A stretch of DNA of 64,000 nucleotides from Candidatus Shapirobacteria bacterium (lineage in GTDB: Bacteria > Patescibacteriota > Microgenomatia > UBA12405). A model generated the notes under the pieces. It saw only the letters and a list, made by a program, of their open reading frames with translations. It was not told where the DNA came from and did not search any database. Made by a program: the position numbers and the translations under genes. Shown here in pieces: positions 22,663 through 45,745 of the stretch (position 1 is its first letter; each line of letters opens with the position of its first letter). Location: positions 67,342 to 131,341 of the forward strand of contig JBAZYN010000001.1 of NCBI GenBank assembly GCA_041659325.1, given 5' to 3'.

Positions 22663-23403
22663 ATGACCGATTTAACTCAACGTCAAATTAAGATTTTAAA
22701 ATGTATCGCCGAAGAATTTATCGAGACCGCAACTCCGGTTGGCTCCGAAACACTGGAAAAAAAATATTCGCTTGGAATTTCTTCTGCTACCATCAGAAAT
22801 GAAATGTCGGCTTTAACCCAACTCGGGTTTCTCAAAAAAAGCCACCTCTCTGCCGGCCGTCACCCCACCTCCATGGGGCTTAAATATTATGTCCGTAACC
22901 TCATGACCCCCAAAGGCCTATCCATTAGTGAAGAAGTTGGCGCCAAAGAAAAAGTTTGGGATTATCGAAATGAATTTGAAAGGCTGATCAAGGAAACCAC
23001 CAAAGAGCTAGCTATCCGTACCAGAGCCATGGCCGTAGCTACTACCGACCAGGGCAGTGTTTACAGTTACGGAGCTTCTAATTTACTGGAAGAACCCGAG
23101 TTTTACAATATAGATGTAACTAAAACGGTATTATCTTTGATGGATAATTCGACCTATTGGTTTGACATCGTCAACAAGGGCAGTGGAATATCCGGTTTGG
23201 GCTCCGAAGAGGTGATTCATCTTTTAATTGGTGAAGACTTGGGCATGGAATTCCTGGAACCATGCGGTTTTATCTATCAAACATATGAGGCAGGCCCACA
23301 TCGTGGTATCCTGGGTATTATCGGTCCGGCCAGATTCAAATATCCGACTATCGTTCCGATTGTTGATTTTTTTGCCAATCTGATTTCAACCGTTAGTCGT
23401 TAA
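22663..23403 (+). CDS. hrcA: Heat-inducible transcription repressor HrcA (short form).
   Basis: N-terminal winged-HTH TQRQIKILKCIAEEFIETATPVGSETL; sits upstream of grpE-dnaK-dnaJ. Confidence 0.8.
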   Translation: MTDLTQRQIKILKCIAEEFIETATPVGSETLEKKYSLGISSATIRNEMSALTQLGFLKKSHLSAGRHPTSMGLKYYVRNLMTPKGLSISEEVGAKEKVWDYRNEFERLIKETTKELAIRTRAMAVATTDQGSVYSYGASNLLEEPEFYNIDVTKTVLSLMDNSTYWFDIVNKGSGISGLGSEEVIHLLIGEDLGMEFLEPCGFIYQTYEAGPHRGILGIIGPARFKYPTIVPIVDFFANLISTVSR

Positions 23404-23419
23404 TATTGTAATAACAAAT

Positions 23420-23890
23420 ATGACCAAAAAAGGCCTCAAACAAACTAATTCGATGCCGGATGAATCGCAGGATTTAAAGGCAAAAATCACCGAAATAAAC
23501 GATAAATTAGCCAGATCTTTGGCCGATTATGCCAATCTGGAGAAACGGATCGAATCTCAGCGTCAGCTCTTTTTTACCATGGCCGTCTCCTCGATAATCA
23601 TCAAAATGGTTGACGTTCTGGACGATCTTTACTTAGCCCAGGATCATCTCAAAGACAGGGGGCTCGAAATTGCCATCAACAAATTTGTTTCAGTCTTAAA
23701 ATCCGAAGGTTTAGAAGAAGTAAACGCTTGCGGGAAAACATTTAATCCCGAAACTATGGACTGTGTTGATGTGGGTGAAGGAAAGAAAGATTTGGTTCTA
23801 GATGTCAGAAAACGCGGTTATACTTTGAATTGTCAAAATATCAGACCGGCGCAGGTTGTTGTCGGCCGTGAACCTGAAATAAAAAATTAA
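23420..23890 (+). CDS. grpE: Nucleotide exchange factor GrpE (short).
   Basis: Position in the operon; coiled-coil N-terminus plus a C-terminal beta domain. Confidence 0.65.
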   Translation: MTKKGLKQTNSMPDESQDLKAKITEINDKLARSLADYANLEKRIESQRQLFFTMAVSSIIIKMVDVLDDLYLAQDHLKDRGLEIAINKFVSVLKSEGLEEVNACGKTFNPETMDCVDVGEGKKDLVLDVRKRGYTLNCQNIRPAQVVVGREPEIKN

Positions 23891-23962
23891 AGAAATTATT
23901 GAATTTATTTATTAAATTGCTAAATTATTAAATTATTAAGTTTTTAAATTTTAAAAAAAATT

Positions 23963-25885
23963 ATGTCAAACAAAATCATCGGAATAGATCTCGGTACTAC
24001 CAACTCCTGCGTTGCTGTTATGGAGGCAGGTACTCCCAAAGTTATCTTAACTTCTGAAGGCAGAAACGTTATTCCCTCAGTTGTTGAGCCAATCAAGAAG
24101 TTGGTGGGGGATTTAGCAAAACGTCAGATGGTTCTAAATTCACAAAATACAATTTTTTCTATTAAACGATTAATGGGTCGCCGAATTGATGATCCTGAAG
24201 TTGTGAAAACTCAGAAAGTCGCTCCGTTCAAAATTGTTGCCGGTAAAGACAAAATGGCTGCCGTTGAAATCAGTGGGAAAATTTACACTCCCCAGGAAAT
24301 TTCAGCCATGATTTTACAAAAGGCCAAAGTCGATGCCGAGAAATATTTAGGGGAAAAAGTAACTTCTGCTGTTATCACTGTTCCGGCCTATTTTGATGAT
24401 TCTCAGCGACAGGCGACAAAACAAGCCGGGGAAATTGCCGGTCTCAAGGTAGAAAGAATTGTCAACGAGCCTACCGCTGCCGCCCTTGCCTATGGCTTTG
24501 ATAAAAAGAAATCAGGTCTGGTGGCGGTATATGACCTCGGAGGAGGTACTTTCGACATTTCAATTTTGGATATCGGTGAAGGTGTGATCGAAGTAATGGC
24601 TACAAACGGAGACACATTCCTTGGTGGTGATGATTTTGATCAAAAAATCATCACTTGGATTATTGATGATTTTCAGAAACAAAATGGTGTCAATTTAAGT
24701 AAAGACCCACAAGCTCTTCAAAGAGTTCGGGAAGCCGCCGAAAAAGCCAAAATCGAACTAAGTAATACAGTTGAAACCGATATCAATCTACCATTTATCA
24801 CCCAAAAAGACGGCAATCCGCTACATTTGACCAAAAAATTAACCAGAGCCGAATTGGAAAAATTAGTCGATGAATTAATCCAGAAAACCATCGGGCCGGT
24901 CGAAAAATGTCTCAGTGATGCAAACAAAAAAGCCCAGGAAAAAGGAGGCAAGGTGACCAAGTCCGACATTTCAGAAATCATAATGGTTGGTGGTATGACC
25001 CGTATGCCAAAAGTCCTTGAAGTGGTAAAAACATTTTTTGGTAAAGATTTAAATACAACCGTAAATCCGGACGAAGTCGTAGCCATCGGCGCTGCTGTTC
25101 AGGGAGCCGTTCTCACCGGGGAAGTAAAAGATATTGTTCTTCTGGATGTTACCCCTCTTACATTTGGGATTGAAACTGCCGGTGGTGTCAAAACCCCGTT
25201 AATCGAAAGAAACACTACCGTTCCGACCAAAAAATCACAAATATTTACCACCTATTCCGACAACCAACCTCAGGTAGAAATCAATGTCTTGCAGGGTGAA
25301 CGGCCGATGGCCGACGACAACAAGTCACTTGGTCGCTTTATTCTCGACGGTATCGCCCCGGCTCCACGCGGCATGCCTCAAATCGAGGTTACCTTTGACA
25401 TCGACAGCAATGGTATTTTAAGCGTTAGCGCCAAAGATAAGGGGACAGGAAAAGAACAAAAAATTACCATCCAAAATGCTACCAATCTTTCAAAAGAAGA
25501 AGTCGAAAAAATGAAAACCGACGCCGAAGCTCACGCTCGTGAAGATGAGGATAAGAGGCTTTTAGCTGAATCCAGGAATCGTCTTGACGGCACAATTTTC
25601 TCGGCGGAAAAATCGCTAAAAGATTTTGGAGACAAAGTAAAAGCCGAAGACAGGTCAAAAATCGAAGAAAAGATCAAATCCTCCAAAGAGATTTTATCAA
25701 AAGCCGACGCCAAGAAAGATGACTTCGACAAAGCTTCAGAAGAGTTAAGCCAGATTTTACAAACTATCGGCGCTGCAGCATATCAGCAACAACCGGAGCA
25801 ACCAAGTTCGGAGTCAAAAAAACCGGATGAAGCAGAAAAAACCGAACCACCCAGAGACGCCGAAGAAGGGGAAATTGTAAAATAA
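23963..25885 (+). CDS. dnaK: Molecular chaperone DnaK (Hsp70).
   Basis: [30 protein letters not shown] and other Hsp70 signatures. Confidence 0.95.
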
Positions 25886-25891
25886 AAAGCA

Positions 25892-26746
25892 ATGAAACGT
25901 GATTTTTATGAAGTGTTGGGTGTTTCTAAAACCGCCAGTAAAGATGAGATCAAAAGTGCCTATCGCAAGATGGCCTTAAAGTTTCACCCGGATCGAAACA
26001 AAGAGCCCGATGCTGAAGAAAAGTTTAAAGAAATCAACGAAGCTTACGAGGTTCTTAGTAATGACCAAAAAAAATCAGGTTACGACCAGTATGGTCATTC
26101 GGCTTTTGATCCGGGATCGGCTGGTCCTTTTGGCGGTCATACCTACACCTCCCAAAACGGTCCTTTTAATTTCACCTGGACAGGTTCCGGAAATCAGACT
26201 AGTGGCGCGGATTTTGATTTTGGTGGATTTAGCAATCCCTTTGATATTTTTGAACAATTTTTTGGTAGTGCTTATTCACAAAATCGTGGTCCAAGGCTTG
26301 AAACATACAAAATTCAACTCTCTTTTTTAGAGGCCGCCAACGGTTGCCAGAAAGAAATAAATATCGGGGGCCTTAGAAAATCAATAAAAATCCCGGCCGG
26401 AGTTGACGATGGCCAGAAAATAAGGTTTAGCGATTTTATTCTCTATATCGACGTTCTCCCGGATAAAGTATTTAGACGAGAGGGAAACAACGTTTTTGTG
26501 AGCATAAATATCACCTTCACTCAGGCAACTTTGGGCGACGAAATTATGGTTCCCACTCTAAATGATCCGGTCAAAATCAGGGTAAAACCCGGCACTCAGC
26601 CAAATACCCTGGTTAGAATCCGAGGTAAGGGAATAAAAGATGTAAATGGTTATGGCCAAGGGGATTTATACTTACAGCTAGTCGTCGAGGTTCCCACCAA
26701 GTTGTCCCCGGGACAGAAACAACAAATTCGCGACTTAGGATTATAG
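25892..26746 (+). CDS. dnaJ: DnaJ-family co-chaperone (J domain plus C-terminal domains, no Cys-rich zinc finger; CbpA-like).
   Basis: DFYEVLGV...HPDRN J domain; Gly/Phe region; no CxxCxGxG repeats. Confidence 0.75.
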
Positions 26747-29276: not shown

Positions 29277-30077
29277 ATGAAAAACTATAATGTCTCATAT
29301 ATTAAAGATCTTCTAAACTCGGCCAAGACAGCTTTGATTGTTGTCCCTCAAATCAGTGTTGACAGCGTCGGTTCGGCACTGGCTTTAGCCATAGCCTTAA
29401 AACAGAAAAATATCACCACAAAGGTTTATTCACCTCAAAAGACCGACAATAACTATTCTAAATTAAGTGGTCTGGAACTTTTAACCGACACATTTAGCTC
29501 AAGTGATCTGGTCGTTTCTCTTGATTATCCTTTAGACCAGATAGAACAGGTCTCTTACAACGACGATGGTGGTAGACTTAATTTAGTCGTCAAGACCAAA
29601 GCGAATTCCCCAAAAGTCGAAAACGACAAAATTATTGTCAACAATCAATCGACCGCGGCCGATATCTGCTTTATGCTCGGAGACGAAACTCTGCTTGGAC
29701 CAAACACTAGCATTACCAACAAAGGTAATTGGGTTTTTATATCTCCATCAAACATTGCCAAAAGTTGGGCCAAAGCTAGTTTGATAGACCCTGATGCCCC
29801 ATTTTCAGAAATTTTCACTTTCTTATTGCCGATGTTAGACCTTGCCCTGGATCAGGATTCGGGCAAAAACCTATTAATAGGTCTACGAGTTGCCACTCAG
29901 TCATTTTCTGTCAACGTTTCCCCCGAAACTTTTGAAGCCGGTGCAATTTGTTTAAGAGCTACTCAGCCGGTTAGCAACGGCCCTAATCCTATCGTTAATC
30001 CTACTCCGATTGAATCAGTCGAATCAAAACCTAATCAGTTTCAATCAAACCAACCCTCCACAGTTCCTACGGTATAA
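29277..30077 (+). CDS. Hypothetical protein in the rbfA/truB/nrnA slot; a DHH-like N-terminus lacking catalytic residues is possible.
   Basis: LIVVPQISVDSVGSALALAIAL resembles the NrnA/DHH motif I region but without the Asp/His residues; PT-rich C-terminus. Confidence 0.35.
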   Translation: MKNYNVSYIKDLLNSAKTALIVVPQISVDSVGSALALAIALKQKNITTKVYSPQKTDNNYSKLSGLELLTDTFSSSDLVVSLDYPLDQIEQVSYNDDGGRLNLVVKTKANSPKVENDKIIVNNQSTAADICFMLGDETLLGPNTSITNKGNWVFISPSNIAKSWAKASLIDPDAPFSEIFTFLLPMLDLALDQDSGKNLLIGLRVATQSFSVNVSPETFEAGAICLRATQPVSNGPNPIVNPTPIESVESKPNQFQSNQPSTVPTV

Positions 30078-30498: not shown

Positions 30499-32700
30499 TT
30501 GAACATGCAAAAAAATATCCAAGAAATCACCATTGGTGACAAAGTTATTACTTTAGAAACAGGCGTATTAGCCCCTCAAACCAATGCTTCAGTTTTAGCC
30601 ACCTTTGACAAAACCGTTGTCTTAGCTACGGTTGTAATGGGCAAGGAAGATCTGTCAAAAGATTATTTCCCTCTATCGGTAGAATTTTCCGACAAACTAT
30701 ATGCCGGTGGTTTGATTAAAGGAGGAAAGTGGATAAAAAGAGAGATGGGTCCATCGGATTCAGCTATACTTTTTGGTCGTATTATCGATCGCTCGGTCAG
30801 ACCACTATTTCCTGTAGGTTTCCAAAATGAAGTTCAAATTATTGTTACCATTTTAAGCAACGACAAGGAAAATGACGTCGTCATCACTGCCTTTACCGCT
30901 GTTTCTGCTGCTTTGGCCATTTCCGATATTCCCTTCAAATCAGCAGTTTCAGCCGTCAGAATCGGACTAATCGACGGAAAGTTGTCGGTAATGCCCCCGA
31001 TTAGTGAAATGATCAAATCAAAAATGGACCTCCTGGTCTGTACTGGTCCATCGGGCATTAATATGATAGAAAATGCCACTGATATCGTCGACAACGAAAT
31101 TGTCTTATCAGGGATAGAATTAGCCCAAAAAACCTCAGAAAATATTAACCGGGCGATCAATGAATTTGCTTCCAAATGTGGCAAGAAAAAAATTGAATTT
31201 GTTTCTGCTTTACCATCAGATGTATTACTGTCCGAGGTAGAAAGATTGATCCAAAAAGATATTGCCGAATTTCTTGCAAGCGGTGCCGATGGAAAACATA
31301 CTCACGACGAGGAAATAATTATCGAAAAGGTCAAACTCGCTTATGCCGAAAGAATCAAGTCTGAGGAAGTTACGGAAACAATGGTTATTTCTGCGTCCAA
31401 TATTCTTATCCGAAAATACTTTAGGCAAGCCACTTTGGCCGGCCAAAGGTATGACAAAAGAAAAATGGATGAAGTTCGCCCGTTAGAAATTCAAGCGGGT
31501 GTTTTGCCCTGTACCCACGGGTCTGCTCTTTTCCAAAGGGGATTAACCCAGGCGCTGACTATCACTACCCTTGGTCCCCTGACCGACCGACAATACCTTC
31601 AGGACTCATCGGGTGAAACCACCAAAAGATACATTCATTACTATTCGGCCGGCCCTTACTCCACTGGCCAAACCGGTAGACTCGGTCGTCCCGGCAGAAG
31701 AGAAATCGGTCATGGAGCCTTAGCCGAAAAAGCCTTAATGCCTGTTATCCCGTCCGAAGAAGAATTTCCATATACAATTGCCCTGACTTCCGAGGTCCTA
31801 TCCCAAAATGGTTCTTCTTCTATGGCTTCTACCTGTGGCTCTACTATGAGCTTAATGGACGCCGGAGTTCCCATAAAAGATCTGGTTGCCGGAATTTCGG
31901 TCGGAATGGTTTCAGACGATAGTGGGAAATATGTCCTCCTTACCGATATTGCCGGGGTAGAAGACCACAATGGCGACATGGATTTCAAAATCACCGGAAC
32001 CAAAACCGGAATTACCGCTATTCAGCTCGATATCAAAAGTGAAGGTTTGACCATGGAAATGATCAAGGAAACTTTTGTTGCCAGTACCAAGGCCAGGCTC
32101 CAAATTTTAGCCAAAATGGAATCGGTCCTGTCAGCCCCCCGAAAATCGCTCTCTGTTTTTGCTCCCAAAATCAAACTGATTAAACTTCCCGAAGATAAAA
32201 TCGGTGAAGTTATCGGTAGCGGTGGGAAAACTATCAAGAGCCTAATGGCAAAATACGGAGTTCAGATCGACATTGATGATTTCGGCGGTGCCTCAATTTC
32301 TTCTGCCGATTCCAAAAAGGTCGACGAGGCTGTATACGAAATCGAGTCAATGGTTAGGGATGTTCAAATGGGGGAAGAATTTGACGGTGTTGTTACCAGA
32401 GTTGAAAATTACGGTGCCTTTGTGGAGTTTTTACCGGGTCGAGAAGCCCTGCTTCATGTTTCCGAAATGACTGGCGGGTTTTTATCCGACCCATCATCGA
32501 TTATAAAAATTGGCGACAAATTACACGTTAGAGTGTCAGGATACAACGACAACCATCAGCTGAAACTTTCTGCCCCAGAATTTAAACAAGCCCATATGGG
32601 CGACGGCTCATCCGAAAGACCTCAGAGACCGGCCTTTGATCAAAATCGCGGATTTGGCAAGTTTAATCAGGGTTTTCGGCCCACCGACCGTCGTCGCTGA
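30499..32700 (+). CDS. pnp: Polyribonucleotide nucleotidyltransferase (PNPase).
   Basis: Two RNase PH domains, KH (IGEVIGSGGKTIK), S1, and an RGG-like basic tail. Confidence 0.9.
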   Translation: MNMQKNIQEITIGDKVITLETGVLAPQTNASVLATFDKTVVLATVVMGKEDLSKDYFPLSVEFSDKLYAGGLIKGGKWIKREMGPSDSAILFGRIIDRSVRPLFPVGFQNEVQIIVTILSNDKENDVVITAFTAVSAALAISDIPFKSAVSAVRIGLIDGKLSVMPPISEMIKSKMDLLVCTGPSGINMIENATDIVDNEIVLSGIELAQKTSENINRAINEFASKCGKKKIEFVSALPSDVLLSEVERLIQKDIAEFLASGADGKHTHDEEIIIEKVKLAYAERIKSEEVTETMVISASNILIRKYFRQATLAGQRYDKRKMDEVRPLEIQAGVLPCTHGSALFQRGLTQALTITTLGPLTDRQYLQDSSGETTKRYIHYYSAGPYSTGQTGRLGRPGRREIGHGALAEKALMPVIPSEEEFPYTIALTSEVLSQNGSSSMASTCGSTMSLMDAGVPIKDLVAGISVGMVSDDSGKYVLLTDIAGVEDHNGDMDFKITGTKTGITAIQLDIKSEGLTMEMIKETFVASTKARLQILAKMESVLSAPRKSLSVFAPKIKLIKLPEDKIGEVIGSGGKTIKSLMAKYGVQIDIDDFGGASISSADSKKVDEAVYEIESMVRDVQMGEEFDGVVTRVENYGAFVEFLPGREALLHVSEMTGGFLSDPSSIIKIGDKLHVRVSGYNDNHQLKLSAPEFKQAHMGDGSSERPQRPAFDQNRGFGKFNQGFRPTDRRR

Positions 32701-32713
32701 TGTATACTGATAT

Positions 32714-33778
32714 TTGATGGATCAAGAAAATCTCTCTTCGCAGGAAGCCATAACTAAACTGATTGAAAAAACTCAATCAGTCAGTCTTCCCGATGGGTTA
32801 AAAGAAAATTTATCTGATCTTTTTAATCAGCTAAAAATCAATTCACGATCAGAAGAAACTTTTTGGCAGTTTTATCAAAACGCCTCCAAGTATGTTGATT
32901 GGATCATCAGGCTGCCCTGGGAAACATCAAGCCAGGATATCTTGGATCTTGACTATGCCAAGGAAAAGCTCGATGCCGGTCACTTCGGCCTTGATTCGGT
33001 CAAAGAAAGAATTATCGAATATGTTTCCGTTCTGGCACTTCAAAAACACCGTACTCCCAACGAAAAACTCCGGGCTCCGATTTTGCTTTTCCAAGGCTTA
33101 GTCGGTACCGGAAAAACCACTATGGCCACCTCCATTTCCGAAGTCCTGGGTCGACATCTGATCCGTATTCCTTTTGGTGGACTTGGGGATCCCCTGTATT
33201 TACGCGGACAATCCCGAGTTTATTCCGAAGCCGAGCCGGGAGCAATTATTCGCGGATTAGCTGAAGCAAAAACCAACAATCCGGTGATTTTGTTGGATGA
33301 AATTGACCGGGCTTCAGACGATGCCCTCAATACCATAATGGGTGTTTTGGTAGAGTTACTGGATCCCGAACAAAACTCCCGCTTTACTGACCACTATATT
33401 GATTACCCCTTCGATCTGTCTCAGGCATTTTTTGTCGCTACCTGCAACAATACCTCCCGGATCGCCACCGCTGTATTGGACCGTCTTGAAGTGATTCAGA
33501 TGCCCTCTTACACCGATGAAGAGAAAATTGCCATTGGTAGAGATTATTTATTCCCCAAAGCTTTAAAGGAATCCGGATTAACCGGTAATGAGTTAACTAT
33601 TTCGCAGGATGTTTGGCTTCAGATTGTTCGACCCCTTGGCTTTGACGCCGGTGTCAGAACTCTAAAGAGGAACATAGAAGGTTTATGCCGCAAATCGGCA
33701 AAATTAATTTTTGAGGGTCGGACCAGACAGGTTGTGGTTGATGTTTCAAACATCAAACAATTTGTCCCTCAGTGGTAA
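32714..33778 (+). CDS. Lon-family AAA+ ATPase module without the LAN N-domain and without the S16 protease domain.
   Basis: Aligns by eye to the Lon ATPase core: YVDWIIRLPW, HFGLDSVKERIIEYV, GLVGTGKTT (Walker A), ILLDEIDRAS (Walker B), DPEQNSRFTDHYIDYPFDLS, VATCNN, LDRLEVIQMPSYTDEEK, AGVRTLKR. Stop codon follows, then a non-protease small ORF and udg. Confidence 0.75.
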   Translation: MMDQENLSSQEAITKLIEKTQSVSLPDGLKENLSDLFNQLKINSRSEETFWQFYQNASKYVDWIIRLPWETSSQDILDLDYAKEKLDAGHFGLDSVKERIIEYVSVLALQKHRTPNEKLRAPILLFQGLVGTGKTTMATSISEVLGRHLIRIPFGGLGDPLYLRGQSRVYSEAEPGAIIRGLAEAKTNNPVILLDEIDRASDDALNTIMGVLVELLDPEQNSRFTDHYIDYPFDLSQAFFVATCNNTSRIATAVLDRLEVIQMPSYTDEEKIAIGRDYLFPKALKESGLTGNELTISQDVWLQIVRPLGFDAGVRTLKRNIEGLCRKSAKLIFEGRTRQVVVDVSNIKQFVPQW

Positions 33779-33784
33779 AGAAAA

Positions 33785-33925
33785 ATGACAGAAACTAATC
33801 ACCTAAAAATTGATAGTCTCAGCTATATAAAACCATCGTTTGTTTTATCATTGATAATCTTGTCACTTGCCTTTGTAATATTACTAATCACCCTTAGCAA
33901 TTCAATCCCCAGGATAAATCCATAG
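33785..33925 (+). CDS. Possible 46-aa hydrophobic small protein (MTETNHLKIDSLSYIKPSFVLSLIILSLAFVILLITLSNSIPRINP).
   Basis: ORF translated by hand between the Lon-like gene and udg; single TM; below the ORF-track size cutoff. Confidence 0.2.
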   Translation: MTETNHLKIDSLSYIKPSFVLSLIILSLAFVILLITLSNSIPRINP

Positions 33926-33928
33926 CTT

Positions 33929-34507
33929 ATGCCGGCTTCTAATCTTCAAAAGCTTCAATACCTCAACAAGCTTATTTCCGAATGTACCAAATGTCCCCTG
34001 ATTAAAACTGCAACCAATCACGTTCCCGGCTCCGGAAATCCTGAAGCAGAAATTATGATTATCGGCGAAGCCCCGGGTTTTTTTGAAGATCAAAAAGGAT
34101 TGCCTTTTGTTGGTAATTCAGGAAAACTGTTGGACAAATTATTATTATCAATCAAACTCCTCAGGTCGGAAGTATTTATTGCCAATATTCTAAAACACCG
34201 CCCTCCGGAAAACAGGCCGCCGCTGCCCGAAGAAATAAAAGTGTGCACGCCTTATCTAAAGGCACAAATACAAATTATCAAACCAAAAATTATTATTACT
34301 CTGGGTCGATTTGCCATGAATTATTTTTTTCCTCTAGAATCTATTTCCAGAGTCCGTGGCCAAGTCAAAAAAATCAAATGGCAGGGGCTTGATCTCACCA
34401 TCATTCCTGTCTATCATCCTTCCGCTGGCCTTCGCAATGGTGCCATGCTCGAGGCGCTGCAAACTGATTTTAAATCTATAGGTAAATTTTTAGGTAAAAC
34501 AAATTAA
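33929..34507 (+). CDS. Uracil-DNA glycosylase, family 4 (4Fe-4S UdgA-type).
   Basis: CTKCPL...GEAPG...HPS motifs. Confidence 0.8.
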   Translation: MPASNLQKLQYLNKLISECTKCPLIKTATNHVPGSGNPEAEIMIIGEAPGFFEDQKGLPFVGNSGKLLDKLLLSIKLLRSEVFIANILKHRPPENRPPLPEEIKVCTPYLKAQIQIIKPKIIITLGRFAMNYFFPLESISRVRGQVKKIKWQGLDLTIIPVYHPSAGLRNGAMLEALQTDFKSIGKFLGKTN

Positions 34508-34514
34508 AAAATAT

Positions 34515-36275
34515 ATGGAAAAAAATAAAGTTTATACACAACGTCCCCAGTCTACTTTTAGCAAAGCTCAAAGTCAGGTTAGGGAATTTAAAAAAAATTA
34601 TGATTCGGTCAGAATCTGTTCACTTGGAGGTTTCGGAGATGTTACTTCCAACATGTTCGTTTACGAATTTATTCCAAATGGCGACTTTTCAAAAAGCCAA
34701 ATTATTATCGTTGATTGTGGAGTTGGTTTTCCGGAAGAAGACACCTTTGGAGTAGATCTACAGATCCCCGATACTCACTATCTCCAGGACAAAAAAGATC
34801 GTATATTGGGAATTTTTATCACCCATGGCCACGAAGATCATATCGGAGCTATCAGGTTTATTCTAAATATTCTAGGGCAGCAAATTCCGATTTTTGCTCC
34901 GAAGTTAGCCGCCTCGTTTATTGAGGCCAAGCTATCAGAGGTTAGTATTCGGGCAAATATTCAAATCTATGACAATATCCACCCGATTACCCGCGGTCCG
35001 TTTACCGTCGATCCGATTAGGGTAACTCATTCCATCCCCGACACTTTCCACCTTGCAATACAAACTCCAATCGGGATTTTCTATCACGGTTCTGATTTCA
35101 AGTTTGATCTATTCCCTTTAGACAACAAACCCTCCGATTTAAGGCATATCGCCCGAGTTGGGGAAAAAGGTGTACTGTGTTTATTATCAGACTGTTTGGG
35201 CTCCGACCACGAAGGATTTTCTCCCTCAGAATCATCTATTGCCGAAAATTTCAAAAGAGAAATAACAAACGCCAAAGGCCGGGTCTTTGTCACCTCGATT
35301 TCCAGTAACATTATTCGTTGGAGCCAGGCGATTGAATACGCCAAAGGCGTTGGCAGAAAAATATGTATCGTCGGAATGTCAGTCGACAAAGCCATAAATA
35401 TTGCCAAGGATTTAGGTTATATAAAACTACTCGATTCGGATATTATCCAAGTTGACCGGGTAAAAAACTTTGCCGACAACAAACTAATCTATCTGGTTGC
35501 CGGTTTTGCCGGCCAACCTGAATCGGCGTTAAGCAAAATGATTATGGGTAAGCATCGGGTAAAAATCAAATCCGGCGATAAAGTAATTTTTTCGTCTCCT
35601 GATTATATCCCCGGTACGACTTCAAACATAAACAATATGATTGATACTCTCTCAAAACTAGGGGCCGAGGTCACCTATGGCGAAAAAGAGGAGCTGCACG
35701 TTTCCGGTCATGCCTATCAAAAAGAACATGCCCTGCTGATTGACCTTGTTAATCCGAAATATCTCCTGCCTATTGGCGGTAATTACCGGCATATAAAAAG
35801 TTACCACACGATGGCTAAAAAACTTGGATATACCGATGACCAACTTGTGAACCCCGATTTTGATTCAGCAGTAACTTTTAACGGCAACCGTGGCTTTGAT
35901 ACAAATTACCATCTGGCCCTGAGAAAAGTTTTAATAGATGGGTTTGGTATTGGTGATGTGGGAGTAACGGTCTTACGGGACAGAAAACTTCTGGCCGAAG
36001 ACGGTATGTTTACCGTTGTGATGCTTGTCAATCTGGTTTCGGGCGAGATGTTAAAAGAACCGGTTATTCTAAGTCGAGGCTTTGTCTTTATGAAAGAAAA
36101 TACCGATCTTATAAACTATTTAAAACAGGAAGTGATCAACCACTTTAAACAAGTTACCAGTAAACCGGCCAATTTCGAGTATATCCGCGAACAAATCCAG
36201 GGCCATATCGAGCAGGTAATCTATGACAAAACCGGCCGTCAACCTATGGTTCTACCGCTAGTGATTGAAGTATAA
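34515..36275 (+). CDS. rnj: Ribonuclease J (metallo-beta-lactamase / beta-CASP).
   Basis: ITHGHEDHIGA motif, beta-CASP region, C-terminal domain. Confidence 0.85.
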   Translation: MEKNKVYTQRPQSTFSKAQSQVREFKKNYDSVRICSLGGFGDVTSNMFVYEFIPNGDFSKSQIIIVDCGVGFPEEDTFGVDLQIPDTHYLQDKKDRILGIFITHGHEDHIGAIRFILNILGQQIPIFAPKLAASFIEAKLSEVSIRANIQIYDNIHPITRGPFTVDPIRVTHSIPDTFHLAIQTPIGIFYHGSDFKFDLFPLDNKPSDLRHIARVGEKGVLCLLSDCLGSDHEGFSPSESSIAENFKREITNAKGRVFVTSISSNIIRWSQAIEYAKGVGRKICIVGMSVDKAINIAKDLGYIKLLDSDIIQVDRVKNFADNKLIYLVAGFAGQPESALSKMIMGKHRVKIKSGDKVIFSSPDYIPGTTSNINNMIDTLSKLGAEVTYGEKEELHVSGHAYQKEHALLIDLVNPKYLLPIGGNYRHIKSYHTMAKKLGYTDDQLVNPDFDSAVTFNGNRGFDTNYHLALRKVLIDGFGIGDVGVTVLRDRKLLAEDGMFTVVMLVNLVSGEMLKEPVILSRGFVFMKENTDLINYLKQEVINHFKQVTSKPANFEYIREQIQGHIEQVIYDKTGRQPMVLPLVIEV

Positions 36276-42914: not shown

Positions 42915-45014
42915 ATGGAAAATCGTTTTTGGCTTATTCTTATCGGTAATTCAACCGCCTGTGCGTCCTTAATTTCCGATGAAAACGGTAAATTCGATGT
43001 AGTTTCAATTGGACCAAAGATGAAGTGGAGTCTCGAGGATGATACCTCCATAATTCCCGCCGTCGATCAGTCGCTTTCAATAGCTAGCCAGTCAATAAAC
43101 TTGCCGGAAGATTCAGAGCCTGGGAACGTCTCTTTTATTATCCCCTCAGATTGGGTGGGTCCCGACGACAAAATATTTCCGGATTACAAGAAGTTATTGT
43201 CAGATCTCATCAAAAATCTCAAGTTAAAACCGATGGGGTATATCGCTCACAGCGAAGCCATTATTGAATATCCGACATATAAAGACAATAGTTTTATTCT
43301 TCTCCACCTATACGAAGGAGGTTTTTACTGTTCTCTAGTTTATTTTGGAAAAATTAAAAATAGGATTGAAAAAACATACTCTGAAGATTTTCGGCCTGAA
43401 TTTCTCGAAGCTGTCTTGACAGAAGCAAAAATAGACTCAACTCTGCCACCTCAAATCGTAGTTTTTGGAGAGGTAAACGATCTAATAGAAGAGGCATTAA
43501 AAAACTACCCATGGCTCGGTAAAAAAAATATTGAAACATTTCTCCACTCACCGTCAATTCAGGTGCTAAAAGAAAATGAAACGATAAATATTTTCGCCAG
43601 ATTCATCGTCAGCCAACTCCACTCAAAACTTCCTGATACTGAAAATGAGATAAGTGAACAGAACATTACCGAAACTATCGAAGTCCCTCCAAAGGAAACA
43701 GAAGAAGTTGGACCCGAAGATTTGGGCTTTAGCGGCTCTTCAAAAATTATTTCAACACCTGTGGTCGAAAAATTACTTTCCCAGATAGAAGAAACTATTC
43801 CATCCCCGTCTTTCCCGGTCATTCGTCCGAAACCAAAATTAAAAATATCATTCCCTCAAATCCATTTCAAATTTAACCGCCTCCTATATATTCTTGCTTT
43901 GTCCCCCCTGCTCATTCTTATTCCGGTTATCTTCTCGCGTACCGATGTTGACCTCTTCGTAACTCCATATGTTTTTTCCTTAAAAACTGATGCCGTTCTT
44001 GATTCGTCAGTAGACCAGGTAAATCCACAAAAACATATTATTCCCGTAACCAAAAAAACAATCCCCGTCACTACATCTTTGAGCACCAAAACAACCGGTC
44101 AAAAAACAATTGGGGAAAAAGCCAAGGGGGAAATTACTGTTTACAATAAATCTGACAAAATCCAAAACATTCCCAAAGGGACCGTGCTGATCGACAAATC
44201 CGGTTTGAAATTTGACATTACAAATGCAGTCAGTATCAGCCCCGGCGTTTCTGATCTCGAAAAAGGAGTAATAAATCTTGGGAAGACCAATATTATTGCC
44301 ACCGCCCAAGATATCGGTCCAGAATATAATATTTCCAAAGGGGCAACCCTTTCGTTCAAGGACACCCCGGAAAGTATTTTAGTCTCAAAGGTAAACGAAT
44401 CGTTTGCCGGCGGTAGCAAACGTACCATCAACGCCGTCAGTTCAGAAGACAAAAAAACCATCGAAAAAAAAGTTCAGGAAAAAATTGCCCTCTCGGTTGA
44501 AGAAAAAATAAACACTGATCTCAGCGGAAATAACAACATCATCAAGGATTCCATTCAAAGTAAAACTAGCCGAATCGAATACAATCGTGAGGTCGGAGAA
44601 GAGGCAGAGGAGTTAAAAGCCGATATTAGTGCCACGGTTTCCTTTTTTGTCTTATCAGAAACCGTAAAAAACGAAACAACCTCCTCATTCCTTTCCTCAG
44701 ACGAAAACTTTTCCAAAGCAGTCTTCGACCCGAAATTATTTAAACTAAACTTCAAAGTTGCAAAAAATGAAACAGACCGATCCACGGGAGTTGCTGAAAT
44801 CGACGGCAAAGCTCTGCCGATAATCGACCAGGCCGATTTGCGCAATAGTATCAGGGGGAAAAGCAAAGCGGAAGCCGAAAAGATAATAATAGAAAAAATT
44901 CCCCGGGCATATAAAATTCATATTAATCACCGCCCGCCGTATATAACATTTTTTAATCTCTTGCCTTTCCGCCAGGAAAATATTAATGTCAAAGTAAACA
45001 CCGAGTCGTTATGA
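42915..45014 (+). CDS. 699-aa bitopic protein: cytoplasmic N-domain (possibly actin-like ATPase of FtsA/PilM type), one TM segment, large extracytoplasmic C-domain with internal repeats.
   Basis: WLILIGNSTACASLISDENG resembles the phosphate-1 motif of actin-like ATPases (weak); TM LLYILALSPLLILIPVIFS; Lys/Thr-rich beta-type repeats in the C-domain. Confidence 0.45.
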   Translation: MENRFWLILIGNSTACASLISDENGKFDVVSIGPKMKWSLEDDTSIIPAVDQSLSIASQSINLPEDSEPGNVSFIIPSDWVGPDDKIFPDYKKLLSDLIKNLKLKPMGYIAHSEAIIEYPTYKDNSFILLHLYEGGFYCSLVYFGKIKNRIEKTYSEDFRPEFLEAVLTEAKIDSTLPPQIVVFGEVNDLIEEALKNYPWLGKKNIETFLHSPSIQVLKENETINIFARFIVSQLHSKLPDTENEISEQNITETIEVPPKETEEVGPEDLGFSGSSKIISTPVVEKLLSQIEETIPSPSFPVIRPKPKLKISFPQIHFKFNRLLYILALSPLLILIPVIFSRTDVDLFVTPYVFSLKTDAVLDSSVDQVNPQKHIIPVTKKTIPVTTSLSTKTTGQKTIGEKAKGEITVYNKSDKIQNIPKGTVLIDKSGLKFDITNAVSISPGVSDLEKGVINLGKTNIIATAQDIGPEYNISKGATLSFKDTPESILVSKVNESFAGGSKRTINAVSSEDKKTIEKKVQEKIALSVEEKINTDLSGNNNIIKDSIQSKTSRIEYNREVGEEAEELKADISATVSFFVLSETVKNETTSSFLSSDENFSKAVFDPKLFKLNFKVAKNETDRSTGVAEIDGKALPIIDQADLRNSIRGKSKAEAEKIIIEKIPRAYKIHINHRPPYITFFNLLPFRQENINVKVNTESL

Positions 45015-45745
45015 CATATTTGTATATTAAAAAACTTCCATCCCAAAAAAGAACGAAAAAACTGTCAAGACCAAAAAGGAAGTTTTTTGCCATCACTCTT
45101 TTTATTTTTGGGATATTTCTTTTTGCTTCTGCCATCCTGCCTATTATCCAATTCCAACTCGAGTATTCCACCAAGTTTAACCAAATTCTAAATCCTCTTT
45201 CAACCAAATATTACAACCAATCGGGTAATATTCTTGGCAGCGCGACCGATTTCACCCAATTAGATAACTGGTTTGCCCCAGACTATCAGGGAATCCAAAC
45301 GACAGTTACCTCGCCGGTTTCACCGGGTAATAGTGTGACCTATTCTATTTCAATCCCAAAATTGAAAATCGACAGAGCCTCAGTTGCTCTTGGTAGTATG
45401 GACCTCAAAAAAACCCTTGTCCAATACCCCCAGACTGCTCTCCCTGGACAGCTTGGGAATTCGGTTATTTTCGGCCATTCTGTCCTCCCGCAATTTTTTA
45501 ATCCAAAGTCTTATATTACAATCTTCTCCACCTTGTTTCGGTTAAAACAGGGAGATGAAATCTATGTTAACTACGACGATATCCAATATAAATATCTGGT
45601 TGAGGAAATGTTTGAGGTCCAACCCACAGATCTATCGGTGCTCGAGCAGCGGTTTGACGGAAAGTACCTAACTCTGATTACCTGTAGTCCTCCTGGCACT
45701 TATCTTCGGAGGTTAATTATAAAATCCAGGATTGTAGATATTTAA
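45011..45745 (+). CDS. Sortase-family transpeptidase.
   Basis: N-terminal TM anchor, catalytic His (VIFGHSVLP), TLITC motif (YLTLITCSPPGT), conserved Arg (LRRLIIKSR). Confidence 0.7.
   Translation: MTYLYIKKLPSQKRTKKLSRPKRKFFAITLFIFGIFLFASAILPIIQFQLEYSTKFNQILNPLSTKYYNQSGNILGSATDFTQLDNWFAPDYQGIQTTVTSPVSPGNSVTYSISIPKLKIDRASVALGSMDLKKTLVQYPQTALPGQLGNSVIFGHSVLPQFFNPKSYITIFSTLFRLKQGDEIYVNYDDIQYKYLVEEMFEVQPTDLSVLEQRFDGKYLTLITCSPPGTYLRRLIIKSRIVDI

Follow-up and report, generated by a model that had tools for sequence, protein, structure and literature searches.

Introduction

According to a 2022 classification, all Lon proteins combine an ATPase domain with a protease domain (PMC9569914). The ATPase portion has been obtained by itself from Escherichia coli Lon, as fragment 235-584, a stable product of limited proteolysis that is ADP-bound and forms an open helical hexamer in the crystal (PMC6722904). 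In LonA, residues Y398 and I399 (Yersinia pestis Lon) grip the substrate, and the region of M284 forms the entry pore (PMC7239648). Here, we describe a protein that retains only the motor of Lon, encoded in 64,000 nucleotides of a Candidatus Shapirobacteria genome (assembly GCA_041659325.1, contig JBAZYN010000001.1, positions 67,342 to 131,341); this whole stretch is called the window below, and all positions refer to it. Shapirobacteria are members of the Microgenomates group of Patescibacteria. Our literature searches turned up no account of a Lon that lacks its protease, and none of any Lon from Patescibacteria, Microgenomates or the candidate phyla radiation (CPR).

Results

The Lon-type gene and its parts are as follows (residue numbers count from the ATG).
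32717-33778, + strand: Lon-type AAA+ ATPase gene, 353 aa from ATG, stop codon TAA at 33776-33778
32738-33052, + strand: N-terminal helical bundle, residues ~8-112, equivalent to the C-terminal part of LonA HI(CC), the NTD-3H bundle
33053-33502, + strand: AAA+ large (alpha/beta) subdomain, Pfam AAA
33095-33121, + strand: Walker A, GLVGTGKTT, residues 127-135
33203-33241, + strand: pore-loop 1, RGQSRVYSEAEPG, residues 163-175 (LonA counterpart RGHRRTY[IV]GAMPG)
33290-33307, + strand: Walker B, LLDEID, residues 192-197
33446-33448, + strand: sensor-1, N244
33482-33484, + strand: arginine finger, R256
33503-33775, + strand: small alpha-helical lid subdomain, Pfam Lon_lid
33656-33658, + strand: sensor-2, R314

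An alternative TTG start at 32714 would give 354 aa. The 353-aa form is 100% identical to P0001, which NCBI names 'AAA family ATPase [Candidatus Shapirobacteria bacterium]'; the IMG label for the same Shapirobacteria protein is 'ATP-dependent Lon protease'. The protein consists of the NTD-3H/HI(CC) bundle, the AAA+ large domain and the lid only. Its Pfam matches are solely AAA (6.8e-16) and Lon_lid (1.6e-11), and TIGR00763 'lon' is matched over positions 251-569 of its 795 (E 2.8e-93); the score of 313.8 bits falls below the equivalog cut-off of 608 bits because both ends of the model are absent from the protein. LonA proteins were the best matches among solved structures (Bacillus subtilis 3m6a at 5e-76). 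The AlphaFold model (pLDDT 81.6) fits the AAA+ modules of LonA proteins with a TM-score of ~0.75 over ~340 columns, including the N-terminal bundle, whose modelled helices (residues 8-20, 26-42, 46-65, 78-86 and 93-112) align with LonA residues ~241-350. The protein thus has both the HI(CC)/NTD-3H bundle of LonA and a LonA-type AAA+ module with Lon_lid. In the 3m6a alignment, its C-terminus (...FVPQW) lies a few residues short of the start of S16 in B. subtilis Lon. A preliminary description of this DNA had read the 354-aa protein as a Lon ATPase core, with which the Pfam, TIGR00763 and LonA structure matches agree. Matching the window protein to NCBIfam revealed no specific model for a protease-less family.

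We searched for remnants of the missing domains using hidden Markov models (HMMs) built from the last 230 residues (S16) and the first 230 residues (Lon N-domain) of 59 full-length Lons. In the six frames of the window, the best match of these models had E = 1.9, the S16 model by itself giving E > 2, and no Pfam match to S16 (PF05362) was present. Across 1.38 Mb around 87 homologous loci (~10 kb flanks, all frames), neither model matched anything at E <= 0.01. The substrate-binding LON N-domain (PF02190) likewise had no Pfam match, and the Lon-N model was negative in the window and the 87 loci. The rest of the window contains no ClpP, ClpX, HslV or FtsH gene. With this domain content, the Lon-type protein cannot degrade proteins on its own.

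The architecture is conserved. A gene of ~350 aa was found in all 87 loci, 80 of which were retrieved by scanning a single genome for each GTDB species, and in 85 the frame ends at the last residue of the query, with a C-extension of 0; the split architecture, which the preliminary description had proposed to look for in relatives, is thus general among them. The 80 GTDB species loci share 52-75% identity with the query, and at least 185 matched stretches encode a relative; their titles include Shapiro-, Woese-, Levy-, Ames-, Curtiss- and Gottesmanbacteria and 'Microgenomates', plus evidently mislabelled bins. Many GTDB or NCBI records with this gene cluster (L009, L011, L017, L027, L072 and others) bear titles such as 'uncultured Gammaproteobacteria', 'Candidatus Methanoperedens' or 'Clostridia' and look like mislabelled metagenomic bins. 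The best 120 clusters at 90% identity clustering (69-100% identity to the query) all measure 348-374 aa. More distant short members, with 38-51% identity and including one from Dojkabacteria, keep the pore-loop signature of the family (see below).

In a neighbour-joining tree computed from the AAA core, the short proteins, both close and distant, formed one clade against 50 LonA proteins (36 of 40 bootstraps), with a mean distance of 1.09 between the short family and LonA compared with 0.71 among LonA proteins. The tree shows a single origin at the level of these sequences, and the distribution suggests vertical inheritance as a Microgenomates housekeeping gene, with deep members in Dojkabacteria. 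Across the same loci, the median identity to the window copy was 57.7% for the Lon-type protein, compared with 52% for FtsK and NusA, 47% for PNPase (polynucleotide phosphorylase) and 45% for RNase J and IF2. The Lon-type gene is therefore better conserved than its neighbours, indicating strong purifying selection.

A close full-length CPR Lon as ancestor was considered and rejected: the nearest named full-length Lons came from unrelated phyla (Wohlfahrtiimonas, Elusimicrobia, Veillonellaceae, Trichoplax and Anaerolineales). Some longer members (P0272/P0143, P0132, P0139; locus L090, 2471-4582) carry N-extensions of 100-350 aa, and retention of the Lon N-domain there was also rejected, the extensions being Q/P-rich low-complexity sequence and not Lon-N. 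One of them, P0272, lies in the same pnp-gene-rnj-ftsK order. The C-extensions of P0161 and P0162 had no Pfam match. Separately, the top-scoring representatives in a library of 1.84 billion proteins (P0121-P0136) are 900-1700 aa long and contain two or three tandem Lon-type AAA+ modules, with 2-3 Walker A motifs. In several of them an S16 domain is present at the C-terminus, and one protein of the set is from Candidatus Dependentiae. We know of no description of such tandem-AAA Lons, some of which could be assembly or gene-call artefacts.

The ATPase motifs are intact throughout the family. K133 and T134 of Walker A, D194 and E195 of Walker B, N244 and R256 are invariant in the 87 loci, and the sensor-2 residue R314 is present in 86, so that the protein carries in sequence every element expected of an active AAA+ ATPase (Walker A and B, sensor-1, arginine finger and sensor-2). 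Because the arginine finger acts in trans, its invariance points to an oligomeric ring; on these residues, both ring assembly and ATP hydrolysis would be well supported. The pore scaffold is likewise recognizable when compared with LonA residues whose roles have been described (PMC7239648). Y59 and W62, corresponding to LonA Y294 and W297, are kept, as is the PS1-beta-hairpin DHY.D.P.DLS, in which D229 replaces LonA E458; R167 is the retained one of the two tandem arginines of LonA.

The substrate-contacting loops have diverged. In LonA, the pore-loop-1 pair is Tyr in 65 of 67 representatives followed by Val, Ile or Leu in 66 of 67. The family instead has RGQSRx[H/Y]P[E/D]AEPG, where the Tyr position is occupied by His in 37, Tyr in 26, Asn in 6, Arg in 6, Phe in 4 and Gln in 3 of the 87 loci, followed by Pro in 62. 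The window copy has Tyr-Ser at this pair and therefore retains the Tyr. In pore-loop 2, the RGDP motif is lost. An acidic pore that lacks a conserved aromatic makes a classical processive unfoldase unlikely. The earlier suggestion of a 'protease-less Lon-like unfoldase or chaperone' accordingly holds as regards a protease-less ATPase, whereas the word unfoldase is doubtful given the unconserved pore-loop-1 pair. In the collar helix, whose counterpart in LonA is the entry-pore region around M284, position 49 is aromatic (Phe or Tyr) in 79 loci and position 53 is Tyr or Phe in 71; one might speculate that these aromatics provide an alternative substrate contact.

Directly downstream of the Lon-type gene lies a short hydrophobic open reading frame (ORF).
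33785-33925, + strand: micro-ORF, MTETNHLKIDSLSYIKPSFVLSLIILSLAFVILLITLSNSIPRINP, 46 aa, single-pass membrane protein with conserved core AFVILLxTL

In the window, its ATG lies 6 nt past the stop codon of the Lon-type gene, in the same frame. A homologous ORF occupies the same gap in a 91%-identical relative (L007); over the aligned stretch, the two differ by 10 synonymous and 9 non-synonymous codon changes, and in the transmembrane (TM) core LSxIILSxAFVILLITLxNSIP by 10 synonymous and 3 non-synonymous ones. An HMM built from eight such peptides and searched in the six-frame space of all loci matched 13 of the 87 (E 5e-18 to 7e-6), of which five were not seeds, and the next best match anywhere had E = 0.7. 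Eleven of the 13 matches lie directly at the stop codon of the Lon-type gene, and all are in close relatives. In most copies the start codon is a GTG overlapping, in another frame, the CAG-TGG-TAA end of the Lon-type gene, an arrangement that would be classic translational coupling. As a control, a coupled TM micro-ORF followed 15 of the 87 Lon-type genes, compared with 5 of 431 other genes at the same loci.

The micro-ORF is absent from the closest relatives, the 92%-identical L005/L006, where rnj (the RNase J gene) follows after 29 nt, and from all loci below ~65% identity. This makes the micro-ORF an accessory of a Shapirobacteria-level subgroup, not an obligate partner; conservation of a small TM ORF beside the gene, raised in the preliminary description, is real in a subset of close relatives and does not extend to the distant ones. 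The micro-protein is possibly a membrane tether or modulator of the Lon-type ATPase. Stop-codon read-through fusing the two products was rejected: the two share a frame in the window, but most homologues start at GTG in another frame, and read-through is not the rule. At three loci (L009, 10990-11319; L013, 2589-2927; L040, 12133-12477), the TM motif forms the N-terminal anchor of a protein of ~93-115 aa with a Cys-rich, presumably extracytoplasmic tail; these proteins match no Pfam family.

The flanking genes are housekeeping genes, and those nearest to the Lon-type gene are listed below.
30499-32700, + strand: pnp, PNPase (Pfam RNase_PH x2, KH, S1)
33929-34507, + strand: UDG-family gene (udg)
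34515-36275, + strand: rnj, RNase J by Pfam, with the micro-ORF and udg between it and the Lon-type gene

Between the end of pnp at 32700 and the Lon-type gene there are 13 nt if the TTG is the start and 16 nt if it is the ATG, and the two genes are probably co-transcribed. The end of pnp, the 46-aa hydrophobic ORF and the UDG-family gene had all been placed correctly in the preliminary description. The order on one strand is hrcA-grpE-dnaK-dnaJ-nusA-infB-(266-aa ORF)-rpsO-pnp-[Lon-AAA]-(micro-ORF)-udg-rnj-proS-ftsK-(RodZ-like). Among the 87 loci, PNPase is encoded at -1 in 62 (median gap between pnp and the Lon-type gene, 41 nt), S15 at -2 in 51 and UDG at +1 in 24, while RNase J takes position +1 in 31 and +2 in 22 (median gap 29 nt if adjacent); no peptidase and no other unknown gene was a consistent neighbour. 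Even at 38% identity, a homologue is placed between rpsO-pnp and ftsK. Deep members (L088, 1344-2949; L089, 435-8382; one from Dojkabacteria) lie divergently beside groES or a few kb from groES-groEL. In the window, the Lon-type gene is 6 kb downstream of hrcA-grpE-dnaK-dnaJ (22663-26746). The proximity of deep members to groES/groEL and of the window copy to hrcA-grpE-dnaK-dnaJ would fit a role in protein quality control.

Heat-shock control through a CIRCE element (controlling inverted repeat of chaperone expression) was rejected, as TTAGCACTC-N9-GAGTGCTAA was not found in the whole window with up to 3 mismatches. Promoter and terminator scans around the Lon-type gene gave the same counts as shuffled sequence, and no tRNA gene and no Rfam family at threshold was found in the window. 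PADLOC returned only generic AAA matches for the Lon-type protein (best DolB, 1.2e-8, partial); an anti-phage defence AAA+ protein (BrxL and the like) was rejected on these generic matches and the housekeeping context.

The long ORFs of the window are nearly all on the + strand. Two of them have no Pfam match. The 266-aa ORF between infB and rpsO (29277-30077, + strand) is conserved in position in 55 related loci, with a median identity of just ~30%. A 699-aa ORF (42915-45745, + strand) lies directly upstream of a sortase gene and overlaps it, and may encode a sortase substrate or surface protein.

Discussion

A whole bacterial lineage keeps the Lon motor only, under constraint above that on neighbouring essential genes and with the substrate-gripping loop rewritten. 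We read the family as a ring derived from Lon that would hydrolyse ATP and remodel or hold proteins, leaving them undegraded, in a housekeeping role for Microgenomates, and we regard this reading as evenly poised between right and wrong. The helical collar of LonA (NTD-3H) and the AAA+ module would form a stand-alone motor that most likely assembles into a ring through the trans-acting arginine finger, and this ring most likely hydrolyses ATP. At the pore, a variable residue followed by Pro and acidic residues stands in place of the canonical Tyr-hydrophobic grip; with that grip replaced, we favour a non-degradative ATP-dependent remodeller or chaperone-like factor over a processive unfoldase that feeds a protease. 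In Shapirobacteria-level relatives, translational coupling to a membrane micro-protein of 26-46 aa could tether or modulate the ring. Two points weigh against this reading. The lost pore-loop aromatic speaks against classic threading, and even 'remodeller' is a role that we infer from sequence; in addition, the chaperone-gene neighbourhood is loose, at 6 kb in the window and with only two deep loci.

Truncation of the domains, together with the IMG name 'ATP-dependent Lon protease', might by itself suggest a decaying remnant of a full-length lon gene. We rejected this explanation and give it practically no weight: an open frame of constant length occurs in more than 200 clusters or species, the catalytic residues are invariant, conservation exceeds that of neighbouring essential genes, and remnants occur in no frame of the window or the 87 loci. 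The preliminary description had argued against a recent pseudogene and had seen no protease-like remnant downstream, and it named full-length Lon or protease remnants at this position in relatives as what would overturn its view. Such a relative was found in 0 of 87 loci, and the view of a bona fide protease-less Lon-like ATPase therefore stands. An ATPase of this kind could also be one half of a two-component protease in the style of ClpX-ClpP or HslU-HslV, with the peptidase (S16-only or of another family) encoded elsewhere. The protein ends exactly at the boundary between the AAA and protease domains, its ATPase residues are intact, 21 close relatives all share the C-terminal ...PQW, a possible docking tail, and ATPases of the HCLR clade often partner separate peptidases. 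However, known two-component pairs are mostly operon partners, and here no S16 lies within ~10 kb at any of the 87 loci and no unknown conserved neighbour exists beyond pnp, rnj and udg. Moreover, PQW is lost in distant members, which end in LPR, LPT or otherwise, and the pore-loop aromatic required for feeding a peptidase is not conserved. We consider a peptidase partner encoded elsewhere in the genome unlikely.

The gene neighbourhood raises a different prospect, in which the protein is an ATP-driven accessory of RNA decay that works with PNPase and RNase J, remodelling ribonucleoproteins or nucleases in a degradosome-like manner as RNA helicases do elsewhere. PNPase is encoded directly upstream in the 62 loci mentioned above and RNase J at +1 or +2 in 53 of 87, with median gaps of 41 and 29 nt; the pnp...gene...ftsK order persists at 38% identity; and no terminator-like signal stands out around the Lon-type gene. 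Binding of nucleic acids is a property of Lon proteins, and basic RNA-binding proteins would be well matched to an acidic pore. In E. coli, the RNA helicase gene deaD lies downstream of rpsO-pnp. Conversely, the same run of synteny joins unrelated genes (udg, proS, ftsK, nusA and infB) in these small genomes, and the deep members have groES/groEL or pilM beside them instead of pnp. RNA itself would be repelled by acidic pore loops, and Pfam detected no nucleic-acid-binding domain. We judge a role in RNA decay improbable, somewhat more so than a distant peptidase. Its most specific form is more conjectural still: a ring without a protease, its pore acidic and non-aromatic and its gene co-transcribed with those of PNPase and RNase J, might be the ATP-driven part of a CPR-specific degradosome that, for example, strips basic RNA-binding or ribosomal proteins from RNA and is held at the membrane in Shapirobacteria by the coupled micro-protein.

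A non-degradative protein-remodelling ring remains our preferred reading, and on present sequences the family is a clean, lineage-wide and strongly constrained departure from the textbook Lon. It is a natural experiment in which a Lon ATPase ring has to make do without proteolysis, and so touches the long debate about a chaperone-like activity of Lon. The family is also informative about the way in which ultra-small CPR cells, with a minimal toolkit, carry out quality control of proteins and possibly of RNA. For proteins of this kind, the IMG label misleads metabolic reconstructions.

Among described proteins, LonA (MEROPS S16.001; B. subtilis 3M6A, Meiothermus taiwanensis 7FD4, Y. pestis 6ON2) is collinear with the Lon-type protein at 35-47% identity. 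It is from the AAA+ module of LonA that the Lon-type protein descends, and this module is also what it would most resemble in its working. Both share the HI(CC)/NTD-3H bundle, the AAA+ large and lid domains, Walker A and B, sensor-1, the arginine finger, sensor-2 and the PS1-beta-hairpin framework. Unlike LonA, however, the Lon-type protein has neither the beta-rich N domain nor the S16 Ser-Lys protease domain, its pore-loop 1 has diverged, the RGDP of pore-loop 2 is missing, its score is half of the TIGR00763 cut-off, and it belongs to its own clade. Lacking the N domain, S16 and the aromatic pore loop, and falling short of the curated score, it should not be filed as a Lon protease. Nor is it a LonB or LonBA, the membrane-bound Lons with S16, because no TM insertion lies between Walker A (127-135) and Walker B (192-197), where the spacing is LonA-like and the alignment collinear, and S16 is absent.

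Resemblance to ClpX and HslU lies in the single AAA+ module, membership of the same HCLR clade and the lack of a fused peptidase. In ClpX and HslU, the pore loop is aromatic, defined elements serve for docking (IGF loop, C-terminal tail) and the gene usually has clpP or hslV beside it, whereas none of these features was seen in the Lon-type family across the 87 loci. AAA+ protease rings with non-degradative work are exemplified by an active-site mutant of yeast Pim1 and by chloroplast FtsHi; these retain the dead protease together with N-terminal or TM domains, both of which the Lon-type family has deleted. LonC of M. taiwanensis has likewise given up one activity, in the reciprocal sense, keeping the protease while its AAA-like domain is ATPase-dead (PMC9569914); the Lon-type protein is not a LonC, because its ATPase motifs are intact. 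The nearest match in boundaries is E. coli Lon fragment 235-584 (6N2I), in which query residues 21-348 align with chain residues 20-337. The two are near-identical in extent, but 6N2I is a laboratory piece of a full-length protease, whereas the Lon-type protein is a natural, conserved product with a diverged pore.

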